From the NCBI GenBank assembly GCA_030603365.1, contig JAUVXV010000009.1, forward strand, positions 80,568 to 144,567: DNA of 64,000 nt, read 5' to 3'. A program made the position numbers and the translations under genes. The stretch comes from Candidatus Heimdallarchaeota archaeon (GTDB lineage: Archaea > Asgardarchaeota > Heimdallarchaeia > Heimdallarchaeales > Heimdallarchaeaceae). Under the pieces are notes generated by a model. The model was not told the origin of the DNA and ran no database searches. It was given only the letters and a program-made list of their open reading frames with translations. Positions 9,358 to 16,851 of the stretch are shown piece by piece. Every line of letters begins with the position of its first letter. The first letter of the stretch is position 1.

Positions 9358-10203
9358 TTACAAAAGAATGAAAATGAGGGTGAAAATTTGAGCATAACTT
9401 ACAATCATAGCAATAAGTGCAGATTTCTCAACTGAAAGCTCTTTTATTTCTCCAACTGCAGTAATTATAATCAAGAAACTCCAGATTTGAAAAACTCCAT
9501 GAAGAATTAGAAGCACTATTGATGGCACAACTATTGCTGTTCCACTAGCCCAACCTATGATGCCAACAATCACTGTAAATAGAAATGAAGGTAAGAAAAT
9601 TAGATTTGTTACGTTGATCAATGGAAATGTATTCTTATTTTTCTTGAAAGCGAATCTACTTAGAATTTCTGTGAAACCTGCGATAAATATCCAACTTCCA
9701 AGAAGACTGATATAACCAAGCCACAGAGGAACTTCATAGGAGATAACGAAGTTTCCAACAATAAGTATTTTACTTCCCCATCCAATGAACACACTTATTC
9801 CTGCTAGAATAACAAATTCAATTAATGCATGAACAGGATTTTTTGCAAAGAATCTAATCAATGGAGCTAGACTAAATTTCCATATGCTGAATACTTTAGG
9901 TTTTTCAGTTTCTTCAAAAACCTCATATTCTGGTTTTTCCTTGCCCTTGAGGATATTTAGAGCTTTTACGCCATCTTCTGATAAGAAATACTTCTTATTA
10001 TCCCCTTGATATACGAACTGTTTCATCTGACGAAGATGATGATAAAGAGGACCAGATTTAAGCTCGAAAGTTTCTGTAAGGTCAGTATATGTCGCTCCCC
10101 CTATTTCTTCAATGAACTCAAGAATCCTTCTCCTAATTGGATTAGAAAGAGCAGTAAACAATGCTTCTTCAATTTTAGAATCTTGAGACATATCTATCAA
10201 CAC
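9358..10203 (-). CDS. ArsR-like winged-HTH regulator fused to a multi-pass membrane domain
   Basis: FTALSNPIRRRIL..LYHHL at the N-terminus; about 5 TM helices at the C-terminus. Confidence 0.8.
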   Translation of the reverse strand: MLIDMSQDSKIEEALFTALSNPIRRRILEFIEEIGGATYTDLTETFELKSGPLYHHLRQMKQFVYQGDNKKYFLSEDGVKALNILKGKEKPEYEVFEETEKPKVFSIWKFSLAPLIRFFAKNPVHALIEFVILAGISVFIGWGSKILIVGNFVISYEVPLWLGYISLLGSWIFIAGFTEILSRFAFKKNKNTFPLINVTNLIFLPSFLFTVIVGIIGWASGTAIVVPSIVLLILHGVFQIWSFLIIITAVGEIKELSVEKSALIAMIVSYAQIFTLIFILL

Positions 10204-10243: not shown

Positions 10244-13200
10244 TCAATCACCGAAATTGCAGAAAGATAATAGCTCTGTAAGTCCCAATCTTTCTAATTC
10301 TTCTCCTCTAGGACATCCAGTTTCAGGATTATAATTCCTATACTCATACCATTCTTTTAGCTGGATTTGAATATCTGGAGAATTACCTTCTGTTGGACCA
10401 TCTAGTCTTTGTCTCATGACATTGGGTAGAACTTGAAGTTCAGGTTTCCACCCCAGTCTTAGATTAATGATTCGTTTAAGAGCGTAAATTCTATCTCCTA
10501 ATAGAATTAAGTCTTTGGATGTATATGATTTGTTAACTGCCATTCCAAGCAAATCTGCTACTAACGGAGCTGGGGGATTATAAAAAACGCATATGGTCAT
10601 TGCATTATACAATTGCCTATAGCTTTGAAGATTGGCCATTTGTTTTGCTATTCCACTGCTTTCAAATCTACTATCTGGCAAATTATCTATCCCTATTTCA
10701 GGAAAAGTTGCTCCTTGCTGTACAAGGTAAGCATCACCATTATTATGGCATGCTCCTCTTGGACTTGTAAGATACTGAATTGCCCATCCACTAAATGCTC
10801 TTGGGTCATGGAATGGTGCTTCTAATCCAGCAACTTGTGGAGCTATTGCTGTATAAAGGTAATTTTCTGCCAAAACCTTACTACCTTCTGCTAATAAGTT
10901 CCCTATACCTTCACGTTTAGTAATCATATCAAGCAAAGTAAGTAATGTATCTGCGTTCCCAAAACTCAAATCTAGTTCTTCAGGTAATGCTTCAGAAGGG
11001 ATATAATTCTTAGATACAAGATCAAGCAGTACTCCGATAGTTGTACCAGCAGAAATTGTATCCATACCATAATCATTTGCTCTGTAAGTTGCAAATGATA
11101 CAGCTTCTAAATCTCCTATTTTCAGATTTGTCCCAAATGCTCCTAATGTTTCATATTCAGGACCCTTAGTTCGAGGAAGTTTATACTTCCCTTCTGGTAT
11201 TTCGATGATCCTGCCACATCCAATCGGACAACGATAACATGCATATCTTCCTACAAGTATAGTTTCCTTAATAGAAGCTCCAGAAAGATTAGATGCTTCA
11301 TCAAACTTAGATTCAGACCAATTACGTATTGGCAAATCTCCATACATGTCTATTGCAACATCGAGATAACCAGCAGTACCAAGTTCTTTAGTGAGTTCAA
11401 CCATAAAATCTTCTTTTATTGATTCATATGCTTCTCTTGATTTTTCTTTAAACTCTTTAGGTAATAGAAATTCTTTGTTTGATCCTTTTACAACTATTGC
11501 TTTTAGTTTTTTTGATCCCATTACGGCTCCTAGACCAGTTCTTCCAACTGCTCTACCTTCATCATTCATAATAGAAGCATATTTCACAAGATTTTCTCCA
11601 GCTTGACCTATACACGCAATCTTGAATTTTCTGTCTCCAAGTTCATCTAGAATCTTTTCATGAGTAGCAAATGTTCCTAATCCCCAAAGCTCCGATGCAT
11701 CTCTGATTTCTACCTTATCATCTTCAATCAGAAGATAAACAGGCTTATCTGACGCTCCTTCAAGGATTATGCTATCATATCCTGCAAATTTTAATTCAGG
11801 ACCAAAATTTCCTCCTGAGTTTGCTTCACCCCAGAATCCTGTTAATGGTGAACGAGAACAAACTGTAAATCTTCCCGCACAAGAAGTGGGCAAACCTGTC
11901 AGGGGTCCAGTCATAAAGATTAAGATATTTTCAGGTGATAGAGCATCAACATTTCTTGTATTCAAAAATTTGAAATAATAATGTGCACCTAATCCACTTC
12001 CACCTACAAAATCCTTTGCCGCATCCATATCTAGTGGTTCTGTTGAAGATGTGTGATTTGAGAGATTTACCTTAAGTACTAAGTTCCGATAGCCTCCTCT
12101 CACAAAATCAGCCATTTCATAAAACATGGATTCTATTGTTTCATTTGATAATTCTCTTGGATTGACTAAAGATCCTGTGTCATTGAGTGCAAAATCACAG
12201 AGAAGTTCCATATTTTCCTGTAGTTGAGAATAGGTGACTCCAAAATCCTTCAGAGTTGTTTTTAATCCGATATCTGTAATTAATTCTTCTACTTTTAGTA
12301 CTAGTTTTTCTGCTCCTTCTCTCGGTGAATCGAACTCGATTCCGATTGCATGAGCTATCTCTGAATAGTGTTGAGCAGTTTTTTCTTCTTCCAGACAGAA
12401 TTTCATCATGTGAGGTAGAGCAACAGCAATTATCTCTCCATGAGGTATATTTAATATCGCACCTGCTGAATGAGCTAAAGAATGGGTTCCTCCAATTTGA
12501 CTATTCCCAATAGCTATTCCTGCCATAGTAGCAGCATTGTGCATTTTTTCTCTATAATCAAAATTATTTCCCTCTTTCACTACTTTTGGAAGATATTCAA
12601 ATACATGTTTAATAGCTTGAATAGCCATAGCATCCGCAAAGTCATTCTTCCAGTCTATTGTATATGCTTCAATTGCATGGGCTAAAACATCCATCCCTGT
12701 TGAAGCGGTTAAACCTGGTGGAAGTTTGATAGTTAGTGAAGGATCAACAATGTCAATATCAGGAATTAAATCTCTATGAGCTAGACTCAATTTCTGTTTA
12801 GTTTCAGGATCTGTTATAATTATTGCCCAATTTGCATCTGAACCTGTTCCACTTGTCGTGGGGATTGTTATCAATCTAGCTTTATTTCGTAAAGGTAAAG
12901 GATCTTCAGGAAAAACGCTGTCTATACTCATATCAGGATTTTCATAGAATACCCAGATTGATTTCGCACAGTCAATTACTGATCCTCCTCCGATTGCAAC
13001 TATCCAGTCCACTTCTTCCTTCTGAGCTAGATCAGCACCTGCTTTAGCCATTGGTATAGATGGTTCATAATCAACTTGATCAAATATTGTTATCTTGAAT
13101 TCATTTTCTTCTAAAAAACTAATAGCCTTTTGAGGAATACCTAAGTCTAGAAGAACTTTATCAGTTACAATAAGTGCACTTTTACCCTTAATTTCTTTTA

Positions 13201-13264
13201 ATTCATCTAGTGAATCTTCCCCGAAAACTATTTTTCGTGGAGCACAATAAAACCACATAATCAA
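10244..13264 (-). CDS. Fusion: iron-containing alcohol dehydrogenase (aa 1-383) + aldehyde:ferredoxin oxidoreductase (aa ~384-1006)
   Basis: ADH: GGGSVID, TTSGTGSD, DVLAH, HSLAH, PHG. AOR: GYxxxVLKVNLS, SPLTG, GRTGLGAVMGSKKLKA, CYRCPIGC, PEYET, GMDTIS, DPR, RGACH. Confidence 0.9.
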   Translation of the reverse strand: MIMWFYCAPRKIVFGEDSLDELKEIKGKSALIVTDKVLLDLGIPQKAISFLEENEFKITIFDQVDYEPSIPMAKAGADLAQKEEVDWIVAIGGGSVIDCAKSIWVFYENPDMSIDSVFPEDPLPLRNKARLITIPTTSGTGSDANWAIIITDPETKQKLSLAHRDLIPDIDIVDPSLTIKLPPGLTASTGMDVLAHAIEAYTIDWKNDFADAMAIQAIKHVFEYLPKVVKEGNNFDYREKMHNAATMAGIAIGNSQIGGTHSLAHSAGAILNIPHGEIIAVALPHMMKFCLEEEKTAQHYSEIAHAIGIEFDSPREGAEKLVLKVEELITDIGLKTTLKDFGVTYSQLQENMELLCDFALNDTGSLVNPRELSNETIESMFYEMADFVRGGYRNLVLKVNLSNHTSSTEPLDMDAAKDFVGGSGLGAHYYFKFLNTRNVDALSPENILIFMTGPLTGLPTSCAGRFTVCSRSPLTGFWGEANSGGNFGPELKFAGYDSIILEGASDKPVYLLIEDDKVEIRDASELWGLGTFATHEKILDELGDRKFKIACIGQAGENLVKYASIMNDEGRAVGRTGLGAVMGSKKLKAIVVKGSNKEFLLPKEFKEKSREAYESIKEDFMVELTKELGTAGYLDVAIDMYGDLPIRNWSESKFDEASNLSGASIKETILVGRYACYRCPIGCGRIIEIPEGKYKLPRTKGPEYETLGAFGTNLKIGDLEAVSFATYRANDYGMDTISAGTTIGVLLDLVSKNYIPSEALPEELDLSFGNADTLLTLLDMITKREGIGNLLAEGSKVLAENYLYTAIAPQVAGLEAPFHDPRAFSGWAIQYLTSPRGACHNNGDAYLVQQGATFPEIGIDNLPDSRFESSGIAKQMANLQSYRQLYNAMTICVFYNPPAPLVADLLGMAVNKSYTSKDLILLGDRIYALKRIINLRLGWKPELQVLPNVMRQRLDGPTEGNSPDIQIQLKEWYEYRNYNPETGCPRGEELERLGLTELLSFCNFGD

Positions 13265-13290: not shown

Positions 13291-13710
13291 TTATAGAAAT
13301 TCTGTTGGAACTTTCTGTGCTGAATTAACCAATTCTTTTGCAGCTTTGGTTGCTCGCATGACTTTTCCTTTGTCACCAACAAGTTTGAATTTTCTAGTAA
13401 GGATTCCTTTGATTGGATCTAATTCTCCATTAATTACTTTCAACCAATTAGAATAGGTACCTTTATACTCAAATTCAGTTTTAGGTCCTTCTTGTCCTTC
13501 CTCAAAATAATCCACACTTCTACAATCGCCATGCCAGAGGTCAAGATAATATGTGTGTTGTTTATCTAGTTTATCATCTGGTTCGATTACAAATAGAAAG
13601 TCACCTTCCCACGTTTTAGCTGCTTCCTTGTAGTCTGGTGAGTTGTTAAGAACTTCCATGAATTTTTCTATCCATTCTCTACTTGGAAATTTTGCTGTCA
13701 TCATAAACAC
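13291..13710 (-). CDS. SCP2 sterol/lipid-binding domain protein
   Basis: FPSxEW, YKEAAKTWEGD, W..VI.GELDP...KFKLVGD. Confidence 0.85.
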   Translation of the reverse strand: MFMMTAKFPSREWIEKFMEVLNNSPDYKEAAKTWEGDFLFVIEPDDKLDKQHTYYLDLWHGDCRSVDYFEEGQEGPKTEFEYKGTYSNWLKVINGELDPIKGILTRKFKLVGDKGKVMRATKAAKELVNSAQKVPTEFL

Positions 13711-15023: not shown

Positions 15024-15893
15024 TCATTGCATCAAGAGTTGCATTGCATCTAGATGCTTTCTTAATTCAGTTATCAAATTTGGAGAATGAGTATTTTTGT
15101 TGGTTTGCATATCTAAGTATGTTGAATTCTTAATTAAACTAACAATCTTTCTTGTTTCCTCGATATTGTGCATTTTGTCAAGTTCTGCCCCAAATATGAT
15201 GGTGTTTTGTTCGATTTGCTCATATAGATCGTAATGCTCTCTCATTGAATGCTTTGCAACATTTTTCCATTTTTTCGCATTAGCTTCTTCTAGCAATCTA
15301 AGATATCTCTTAGCATGTTCTTCACTTTCAGATTTCTTAGTTATCAACCAGGAACGGAGAAGTGGTTTGATTATAGTCAGTACAAAAGGAGGTGTGAATG
15401 GAATCATGTATCTAGTACCTTTAGGTAGAGCAATTTTAGATGTTGCTCCTACAAATGCAACAAGAAGAGGATCGAATTTCTTTTTAGCTAATGCGTCAGC
15501 AAGAATCATTGCTCCCCATGATGAAGCCAACGGGATAAGTTTTTGTTCATCTATATTGAGTTGATTGATTACATCTATGATATCTTCAGATACCCTATCC
15601 AGAGTGTTTTTTGTTTTCTTATTCAACACACTTGAGTCTTTTTCTCTTGATTCAAAATACACTATATCAAAGAAATTCATTGCTTCTAGTAGCACGTCAT
15701 CCCAAGAAGGAACTATAGTTGCCCATCCAGGTATAACGAATAAAGTATAACCATTTCTTGTTTTTTCTGGTGCGATTGTATGATAAATGCGAACTATTGT
15801 ATCATCACTCACAGTAAGGAATTTTTCTTCAGCCAACTCTTCATACTTCGCAACTAGTGGTTCGAATTTGAATTTCTTTGTTATCTTTACCAT
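15024..15893 (-). CDS. Alpha/beta-fold hydrolase (start revised to ATG 15893)
   Basis: VIPGW oxyanion region, ASSWG nucleophile elbow, downstream Asp and His candidates. Confidence 0.7.
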   Translation of the reverse strand: MVKITKKFKFEPLVAKYEELAEEKFLTVSDDTIVRIYHTIAPEKTRNGYTLFVIPGWATIVPSWDDVLLEAMNFFDIVYFESREKDSSVLNKKTKNTLDRVSEDIIDVINQLNIDEQKLIPLASSWGAMILADALAKKKFDPLLVAFVGATSKIALPKGTRYMIPFTPPFVLTIIKPLLRSWLITKKSESEEHAKRYLRLLEEANAKKWKNVAKHSMREHYDLYEQIEQNTIIFGAELDKMHNIEETRKIVSLIKNSTYLDMQTNKNTHSPNLITELRKHLDAMQLLMQ

Positions 15894-15984
15894 TATTTTT
15901 GGAATTTCAAGGTTATTTAAATACCTAATTAAGTGACTACAATCAGACCAATTCTTTTTATACAAGTTGAAATCTGACAAAAAC

Positions 15985-16851
15985 ATGAAGATTAAGTTAG
16001 TAACAGATGCATCATCTCTGGTTCCTTTAGAATTCCTACAAAAGGAAAAAATAGGTTTTTTGGAATCAGTTCTTCTTATTGATGAGAAAGAATACAGAGA
16101 ATTAACTGAATTAGATTTTGAAAAATTTGTTAAAAGTCTCCATGACTTAGATCCATATCCTACAACTAGTCAAGTTAAGCCAGAAGATGCTGTAAACGTC
16201 TTTAAACAGGCTATAGATGACGGTTATGATGAAATCCTCTACCTTGGTTTAACTCCTAAGGTTTCAAGTCAAATGAATGTAGCTAGGCTTGCTGCAAAAA
16301 CTCTGAAGAAGAAAATCAACATTCACATTTATCCAACTGAAGTGACATGTGGCTCTCAAGGAGCTATGACCTATATTGCTTGGAAACTTCTAAAACAAGG
16401 AAAAACTTCAGAAGAAATTATGGCATATCTAGATGATCTTAAACAAAAAATCTATACCATTGGTGTCACAGTAGATATCGAAACTCTCTTCAAAACAGGT
16501 AAAGTGAAAAGAGGTTCAGCTAAAGGGATTCTGGTCTCTTTACTAAAAATGAAACCAATTGCTCATATTACTTTAGAAGATGGTTTTATTGGATATGGTG
16601 CAAGTTTAAGTTATAAGAGTGCTTTGAAGACAATGATTGCTGAAATCGAAAAAAGAACAGATCCAGACCAAGAATATGATCTTTATATGGCTGATGCTCT
16701 GAATAAAGAATTTGCAGAAGTATATGCTGACGAGATTAAGAAAGTCAGAAAAATAAAAGATGTTCACTACTGGTCCATGTCTCCTGTTATGGCTTTATCT
16801 GCAGGACAAGATGCAGTTACAGCTACAATTGCACCAGTTGTTAAGGAATAG
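15985..16851 (+). CDS. DegV/FakB family fatty-acid-binding protein
   Basis: IKLVTD, PTTSQ, GYDEI, LKMKPI. Confidence 0.85.
   Translation: MKIKLVTDASSLVPLEFLQKEKIGFLESVLLIDEKEYRELTELDFEKFVKSLHDLDPYPTTSQVKPEDAVNVFKQAIDDGYDEILYLGLTPKVSSQMNVARLAAKTLKKKINIHIYPTEVTCGSQGAMTYIAWKLLKQGKTSEEIMAYLDDLKQKIYTIGVTVDIETLFKTGKVKRGSAKGILVSLLKMKPIAHITLEDGFIGYGASLSYKSALKTMIAEIEKRTDPDQEYDLYMADALNKEFAEVYADEIKKVRKIKDVHYWSMSPVMALSAGQDAVTATIAPVVKE

Follow-up and report, generated by a model that had tools for sequence, protein, structure and literature searches.

A single-chain iron-containing alcohol dehydrogenase and aldehyde:ferredoxin oxidoreductase in a genus of Heimdallarchaeaceae-like archaea

We describe a gene of Candidatus Heimdallarchaeota archaeon (GenBank assembly GCA_030603365.1) that encodes, on one continuous chain, an iron-containing alcohol dehydrogenase (ADH) followed by an aldehyde:ferredoxin oxidoreductase (AOR). 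The gene lies on the (-) strand of a 64,000-nucleotide (nt) stretch of contig JAUVXV010000009.1 (positions 80,568 to 144,567), hereafter the window, to which coordinates refer unless another contig is named. The fusion is genuine and conserved, has arisen more than once, and is uncharacterised. The enzymes and reactions that it combines are familiar: the two enzymes are already known to act sequentially, and their genes are adjacent in relatives. As a joint explanation of function, coupling and origin, we favour a genuine bifunctional enzyme carrying a single-chain route from alcohol through aldehyde to acid, to which we assign a probability of roughly 0.78. Its activity, preference for NAD, coupling by proximity and direction are the predicted parts of this reading and stand beside the observed architecture, intact sites, conservation, origin and recurrence.

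The open frame of 1006 codons described in the original prediction spans 10244-13264 (-) and runs from a TTG at 13264. Translation probably starts at the ATG at 13258, because 1004-aa orthologues begin MWFYCAPRK; the fused adh::aor gene would then occupy 10244..13258 (-), with 1004 codons and a TGA stop at 10244-10246. Pfam recovered four near full-length domains in order, namely Fe-ADH (residues 9-175, E = 7e-44), ADH_Fe_C (186-381, E = 7e-50), AFOR_N (396-594, E = 3e-81), and AFOR_C (610-995, E = 7e-100). The Fe-ADH module (residues 1-381; 12116..13258, (-)) is followed by a link of seven residues, MADFVRG (12095..12115, (-)), which connects the final helix of the ADH to the initial strand of the AOR, and by the AOR module (residues 389-1004; 10247..12094, (-)), in which AFOR_N covers 11483-12079 and AFOR_C 10280-11437. 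The junction reads ...IESMFYE-MADFVRG-GYRNLVLKVNLS, with neither a stop nor a change of frame, and the junction peptide of the fused protein is ...YEMADFVRGGYR..., with variants among orthologues. The AOR half had been predicted to begin near Met384 (ATG at 12115); this position agrees in the 1006-aa reading and corresponds to Met382 in the 1004-aa numbering.

The ADH half matched PF00465 with 149.9 bits (cut-off 31.3; profile positions 1-168 of 168) and PF25137 with 169.9 bits (cut-off 27; profile positions 1-190 of 194), which places it, by profile, in the iron-containing (group III) alcohol dehydrogenases. It aligned end to end with the ADH domains of AdhE, with FucO and with 1,3-propanediol dehydrogenase, being closest to the AdhE ADH domains (best solved relative 3zdr, E = 2e-72), and Foldseek superposed it on solved Fe-ADH structures with template modelling (TM) scores of 0.86-0.94. 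The nucleotide-binding motif GGGS was found at residues 90-93 (12980-12991), and D190, H194, H259, and H273 aligned to the metal ligands of AdhE and FucO. An acidic residue, Asp33, is present in the motif LIVTD, as in the NAD-dependent FucO, and on this basis NAD would be preferred over NADP. No NCBIfam equivalog reached its cut-off for the window protein.

The AOR half matched the profiles of the AOR/WOR family large subunit, with 272.4 bits for AFOR_N (PF02730; profile positions 3-198 of 199) and 335.3 bits for AFOR_C (PF01314; profile positions 4-385 of 385). It aligned end to end with the solved AORs 9mqx_D, 1aor and 9g7j (E = 1e-115 to 1e-119; 36-38% identity), on which it was superposed by Foldseek with TM scores of 0.93-0.94. 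On alignment to the Pyrococcus furiosus enzyme (PfAOR), C674, C677, C681, and C890 correspond to the [4Fe-4S] ligands Cys288, Cys291, Cys295, and Cys494, and all four were invariant in the 53 aligned AOR-containing sequences. The first three lie in CYRCPIGC (11216-11239, (-)) and the fourth, residue 890 (10589-10591, (-)), in LYNAMTICVF. The motifs GGGS, CYRCPIGC, and PEYET and the D/H/H/H metal ligands were all present; however, RGACH, which the original prediction had taken for a second cluster motif, proved instead to carry the equivalent of the catalytic His448 (10745-10747, (-)). Catalysis by AOR involves the second-shell residues Thr243, Glu313, Tyr427, and His448 (PMC13328260, PMC12096430), and the equivalents of Thr243, Glu313 (11150-11152, (-)) and His448 are retained. 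The first pterin motif, DxxGxD, reads DYGMD here; among the 17 fused orthologues the second Asp never changes, and the first is Glu in 2. In the second pterin motif, DxxGxC, the Cys is kept and the Asp489 equivalent is Asn, as it is throughout the clade of stand-alone AORs.

A search of 5.8 billion proteins yielded 16 full-length fused clusters (996-1007 aa, 69-89% identity) from NCBI, ENA, JGI, and Logan assemblies. These were labelled Heimdallarchaeota or Asgard and bore the product name 'iron-containing alcohol dehydrogenase'. Within the same genus, nine genomes contained the complete fused frame and five contained contig-truncated pieces crossing the junction, so that the junction was open in 14 genomes; none of these 14 carried a stop there. 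Together with the catalytic sites, which are intact by sequence, these open junctions uphold the earlier view of a natural Fe-ADH::AOR chain, and the chain is conserved. Twenty residues with a role in catalysis or cofactor binding were compared, and 18 of them were invariant in all 17 fused orthologues: GGGS, Asp33, the four metal ligands, the four cluster cysteines, the equivalents of Thr243, Glu313, and His448, the second Asp of DxxGxD, and the His and Asn that are typical of the clade at the positions of Tyr427 and Asp489. The two halves were equally conserved (66-87% identity for the ADH half and 67-90% for the AOR half). A stretch of nine residues around the link was only 22-78% identical, with zero indels. 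Conserved halves joined by a variable link of constant length form the pattern expected of two working modules with a length-constrained spacer. In the genome carrying the window (3.65 Mb, 17 contigs, 89% complete), seven AOR-family loci were found, and the AOR was fused at this one only.

The AlphaFold2 model, built from 56 sequences, had a mean predicted local distance difference test score (pLDDT) of 91.2 and a predicted TM score of 0.78. The junction was modelled as ordered, the last ADH helix (372-382) running into the first AOR strand (393-398) with a pLDDT of 85-96 over residues 371-400. None of the solved chains found by Foldseek spans both halves.

To trace the origin of the fusion, 400 Asgard genomes were searched, and the junctions between adh and aor were read at 20 loci. 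Collinear adh-aor matches were found in many Asgard families. The closest, in the two genomes of sister genus g2 (G025 and G029; L018, at about 2650, and L019; protein P0021), are split orthologues, 67-68% identical to the window protein, in which aor follows the adh stop without a spacer (...ATG CTT TAG GTG GTT...). Over a wider range (g2, g15, and families f31, f20, f12, and f13), the split pairs are orthologous to the fused gene, with 40-68% identity, the same gene order and often an SCP2 gene upstream, but differ from it in having a stop, a spacer that contains a GGAGG- or GGTGA-like site, and a start codon of its own for aor, where the window protein is one chain. At the 20 loci read, the stop was TAA, TAG, or TGA, the spacer measured 9-50 nt, and the start was ATG, GTG, or TTG; several loci showed additional in-frame stops at the junction. 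In another family of the class, the stop is followed by GAA GAG GAG GAT TTA CCA TTG, i.e. a ribosome-site-like GGAGG and then a TTG start. The Asgard pairs are thus ordinary, tightly linked genes, probably with coupled translation. In the sister genus, the only ribosome-site-like motif upstream of aor is a TAGGTGG that overlaps the stop, which raises the question of termination-reinitiation.

A tree of the AOR domain was obtained from a quick IQ-TREE maximum-likelihood run, with Shimodaira-Hasegawa-like approximate likelihood ratio (SH-aLRT) supports. The fused forms grouped in one clade (support 96), sister to the split sister genus (97) and then to g15 (100), inside the split Asgard pairs. 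From this nested position, the fusion is a single derived event at the base of one Heimdallarchaeaceae-like genus. The original prediction had opposed the fusion to the possibility that all close relatives keep two separate genes; this was not the case within the genus, but it does describe the sister genus and the rest of the phylum. Some members of the genus read TTA GGT GAA at the junction, versus T TAG GTG in the sister genus, with a net difference of 3 nt, which may reflect either a clean codon deletion or paired frameshifts. The stop between adjacent, translationally coupled adh and aor genes would have been lost by this net change.

Translational read-through, by pyrrolysine insertion or otherwise programmed, was considered and rejected. 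It had been suggested by the first relatives examined (g2, G054, and a distant paralogous pair), each with a single in-frame TAG between adh and aor. The variety of stops, the multiple in-frame stops, and the ribosome-site and start signals speak against it, and the impression that the pairs are always in frame was a bias of search reporting. PylD was not found above its cut-off in the five genomes tested. TAG accounts for 24% of the stops in the genome carrying the window, and at several loci it overlaps a ribosome-site-like TAGGAG or TAGGTG.

Separately, many members of families f20 and f6 carry a further adh-aor pair, paralogous to the first (L021, L022, and L122-L126). Its products share about 35-38% identity with the window protein, its genes stand in the same order across a short spacer, and its ADH, of about 400 aa, is extended at the N-terminus. 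On contig C15 of the genome carrying the window, about 4 kb separates two AOR paralogues (193198-195039 and 198810-200624); they are sisters on the tree and look like a recent tandem duplication.

The search of other genomes for the Fe-ADH, AFOR_N, and AFOR_C architecture that had been proposed with the original prediction reached beyond the archaeal clusters. A profile-free scan of 1.84 billion cluster representatives yielded three more fused clusters, which include bacterial fusions. The P0172 type (1014-1029 aa), from Anaerovoracaceae/UBA1422 metagenome-assembled genomes (MAGs), has the order ADH-AOR, intact frames and a linker of 20-35 low-complexity residues; P0137 (1026 aa) has no assigned taxon; and the P0246 type (977 aa), from Desulfobacterota MAGs ('Tharpellaceae'), has the reverse order, AOR-ADH. 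Like the window protein, these fusions bear the same four Pfam domains on one chain, and motifs were intact in the Anaerovoracaceae-type and P0137 proteins checked; unlike it, they have a long low-complexity linker or a reversed domain order, and no SCP2 neighbour. None of them exceeds 37% identity to the window protein, and on the tree they occupy AOR clades of their own; the Fe-ADH and AOR families have therefore been fused at least three times independently. At NCBI they are labelled 'iron-containing alcohol dehydrogenase' only. Their neighbours were considered as a clue to the substrate and set aside, being unrelated genes (threonine synthase, peptidase, heliorhodopsin, CorA, and amidohydrolase). 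The heliorhodopsin gene (Pfam E = 2e-94; L030:7416-8195) follows the fusion gene in Firmicutes bacterium UBA1422, probably by coincidence.

In the route that we propose, the ADH module (group III, iron) would interconvert alcohol and aldehyde with NAD(H), and the AOR module, with a tungsto-bis-pyranopterin and a [4Fe-4S] cluster, would interconvert aldehyde and free acid with ferredoxin, using neither coenzyme A (CoA) nor ATP. The [4Fe-4S] cluster would pass the two electrons from the aldehyde on to ferredoxin. Being short and constant in length, the link would hold the modules in one geometry, with aldehyde made and consumed on the same particle in a 1:1 ratio; covalent pairing would keep the reactive aldehyde local, and NADH and reduced ferredoxin would be delivered in a fixed ratio. 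Since the acid/aldehyde couple lies at about -520 to -560 mV (PMC10816221), the ferredoxin-linked oxidation of the aldehyde would be strongly exergonic and could pull the unfavourable NAD-linked oxidation of the alcohol. In reverse, aldehyde reduction would pull the unfavourable reduction of the acid, as in the known AOR-ADH pathway. We lean slightly towards the alcohol-to-acid direction, because of the neutral marine-type habitats, the thermodynamics and a carrier protein, encoded next to the fusion, that suggests substrate delivery. The genome carrying the window contains [NiFe]-hydrogenase-like genes; an [FeFe] hydrogenase was not found in it.

Several observations weigh against this proposal, some of them concerning the pterin cofactor. 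MoaA, MoaC, and MoeA were not found in the genome carrying the window, nor were they found (MoaA being searched by its C-terminal domain) in the rest of the genus (24 genomes), in the sister genus (2 genomes) or in g15 (6 genomes). The tungstate-binding WtpA was not found in the genome carrying the window, the only one searched for it. In a tblastn search of that genome with the five-gene cofactor cluster of a closed relative (G027; L127:6025-9651), the flanking genes matched and the cluster itself did not. In addition, the position of Tyr427 is occupied by His across the clade (17 out of 17 fused and 31 out of 32 stand-alone relatives), and 8 of the 24 other genomes of the genus had no orthologue at E <= 1e-150, the gene being either dispensable or not assembled there. 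MoaA, MoaC, and MoeA are present in both closed genomes of a neighbouring genus and in nearly all genomes of families f3 and f4, and MoaC was found in 126 of the 268 genomes of the phylum that are at least 85% complete. The Tyr-to-His change is shared by the active, characterised AOR of C. formicoaceticum and by WOR5/ASOR (PMC12096430). The AOR genes nevertheless look fully functional in their sequences. Either the cofactor is salvaged or made by a pathway that has escaped recognition, or these proteins are something other than the AORs they resemble. The literature searched contained no paper on missing pterin-cofactor genes in AOR-rich Asgard lineages.

If the organism cannot make the pterin cofactor, the AOR half might be inactive or might not perform tungstopterin chemistry at all. 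That MoaA, MoaC, and MoeA were found in none of the genomes of the genus, and WtpA not in the genome carrying the window, speaks for this reading, which we nevertheless regard as improbable: the seven AOR-family genes of that genome are intact, the cluster and second-shell residues are invariant and those of the pterin motifs nearly so, and conservation is no lower in the AOR half than in the ADH half. Such a pattern fits an enzyme in use, and hence a supply of cofactor by salvage or another route; moreover, AOR-family genes are widespread in a phylum in which about half of the near-complete genomes miss MoaC. It is less probable still that translation also, or mainly, starts internally at Met382 and yields an AOR of its own, so that the two products remain split in function. 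An in-frame ATG does stand at the junction (12115), and some members of the genus keep an AGGTGA-like remnant there (TTA GGT GAA), but the window has no ribosome-site-like motif before this ATG, the remnant in the other genomes is too near any start codon, and the link and the N-terminus of AOR are modelled as ordered and continuous with ADH.

That the fusion is a sequencing or assembly error, or a frameshift merging two genes, can practically be dismissed. Only the general expectation that MAG assemblies contain errors speaks for it, and this artefact was rejected because the same open junction recurs in 16 clusters and 14 genomes, in independent assemblies from different projects, each with its own junction codons. 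The rival that deserves more weight, although we think it unlikely, is that selection is indifferent to the fusion: the stop was lost by accident, and two cooperating enzymes became tethered without any benefit in channelling or kinetics. Across the phylum the pair is normally split and evidently works in that form, 8 of the 24 other genomes of the genus gave no orthologue, and the linkers of the bacterial ADH-AOR proteins are long, of low complexity and variable in length, which does not suggest a fixed tunnel. Against neutrality, sequences that have diverged to as little as 66% identity are still fused, the length of the link is invariant, and in none of the 14 genomes has a stop returned; in addition, the same two families have been fused independently at least three times, which suggests an advantage that recurs. 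A bifunctional enzyme with coupled modules remains the reading that we prefer.

AOR and ADH together provide the one biological route known to connect carboxylic acids with alcohols without CoA or ATP, and this route is under development for the production of alcohols from acids and syngas. The two-enzyme pathway and its energetics are established (PMC10816221; PMC12096430): a separate tungsten AOR and NAD(P)H-dependent ADH act in acetogens, in Thermoanaerobacter sp. X514, and in P. furiosus carrying AdhA, and the reverse direction operates in alcohol catabolism (PMC10816221, PMC12096430). The window protein resembles this route in its enzyme families and in its predicted steps, alcohol to aldehyde with NAD(P) and aldehyde to acid with ferredoxin, without CoA; it differs in that genes and proteins are separate in the known route, whereas here one chain of 1004 aa holds both modules across a link of seven residues.

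In its construction, the protein recalls AdhE, a bifunctional enzyme that forms spirosomes, in which an Fe-ADH is likewise fused to an aldehyde-converting module and the aldehyde is sequestered. In AdhE, however, the ADH is preceded on its N-terminal side by a CoA-acylating aldehyde dehydrogenase (ALDH), and NAD(H) serves in each of the two steps, whereas in the window protein a tungstopterin/[4Fe-4S] AOR lies C-terminal, the predicted product is the free acid and the predicted second carrier is ferredoxin. Membership of AdhE was considered and rejected, as Pfam found no ALDH domain and PRK13805 matched only in its ADH part, with 313 bits over positions 458-860, far under its cut-off of 951; the distinction from AdhE drawn in the original prediction is thus borne out. 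The AorABC complex of Aromatoleum aromaticum (8c0z) and the electron-bifurcating tungsten aldehyde oxidoreductase (9mqx) share a homologous catalytic subunit, among the best sequence and fold matches, and a link to the pyridine-nucleotide pool. There, electrons from the aldehyde reach NAD through extra iron-sulfur and flavin subunits; in the window protein, NAD(H) would be used in a separate step on the ADH domain, and Pfam found no flavin or polyferredoxin module in the chain. Overall, the protein is predicted to work like the two-enzyme AOR-ADH route and is built as an analogue of AdhE, not as a member of its family.

The original prediction knew of no characterised example, and our reading of the literature agrees. 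Neither the 2026 classification of more than 4000 tungsten-containing oxidoreductases nor the 2025 review of tungsten enzymes mentions a large subunit fused to an ADH (PMC13328260, PMC12096430), and the literature search, which left most subscription journals outside its range, found the two-enzyme pathway and not a fused enzyme. A natural single-chain version, with at least three inventions, complements AdhE as a system in which to study the handling of a reactive aldehyde between highly dissimilar active sites, and supplies engineers with a ready-made scaffold in which three naturally occurring linkers can be compared. The adh-aor pair found across the phylum, frequently with SCP2 before it, marks a conserved and undescribed piece of Asgard alcohol or lipid catabolism, and the absence of pterin-cofactor genes in AOR-rich lineages raises a testable question of cofactor dependence on partner organisms.

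Among the neighbouring genes, the most constant encodes a small carrier of the SCP2 family (139 aa; 13291..13710, (-); Pfam SCP2 E = 8.5e-10). It lies 32 nt upstream of the ATG of the fused gene, is co-oriented with it, and is probably the first gene of the operon. The nearest solved relatives of its product are the SCP2-like T. thermophilus TT1886 (1wfr) and 2cx7 (E = 2e-15). An SCP2 gene was found directly upstream at every locus of family f1 and of g15 for which upstream sequence exists, and at 4 of the 20 loci of other families. SCP2 domains are lipid carriers, and the conserved upstream position hints at, without proving, a hydrophobic, poorly soluble substrate such as a long-chain or isoprenoid alcohol or aldehyde. 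A search for fused forms of the SCP2 protein among longer proteins returned one irrelevant match only.

Three genomes of g15 contain an orthologous AOR without an adjoining ADH (L023, L024, and L025, i.e. G060:C74, G056:C17, and G050:C7); SCP2 directly precedes this stand-alone AOR where upstream sequence exists (L023 and L024), and a fourth g15 genome (G054, L020) has the order SCP2-adh-aor. The association of SCP2 with AOR may be the older partnership. A more speculative extension, which we consider doubtful, would make SCP2 and ADH::AOR one CoA-independent module, in which the carrier would deliver an insoluble fatty or isoprenoid alcohol to a two-site enzyme of fixed geometry, the aldehyde would be channelled, NADH and reduced ferredoxin would be produced 1:1 and tungstopterin would be salvaged from syntrophic partners. 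If true, this would link a new enzyme architecture with dependence for a cofactor in the archaea most closely related to eukaryotes.

On the other side of the fusion, 40 nt downstream and co-oriented, lies a gene for a winged-helix (ArsR/HTH_20) protein with a membrane (Yip1-like) tail (9358..10203, (-)); it is conserved in this position only within the genus, and its tie to the fusion is uncertain. Two further genes of the window, at 15024-15986 (-) and 15967-16851 (+), were not seen in the short flanks of orthologous loci. The former, an open reading frame of 320 aa, had no Pfam match at E <= 0.01, and the latter was confirmed as encoding DegV (E = 8e-49).

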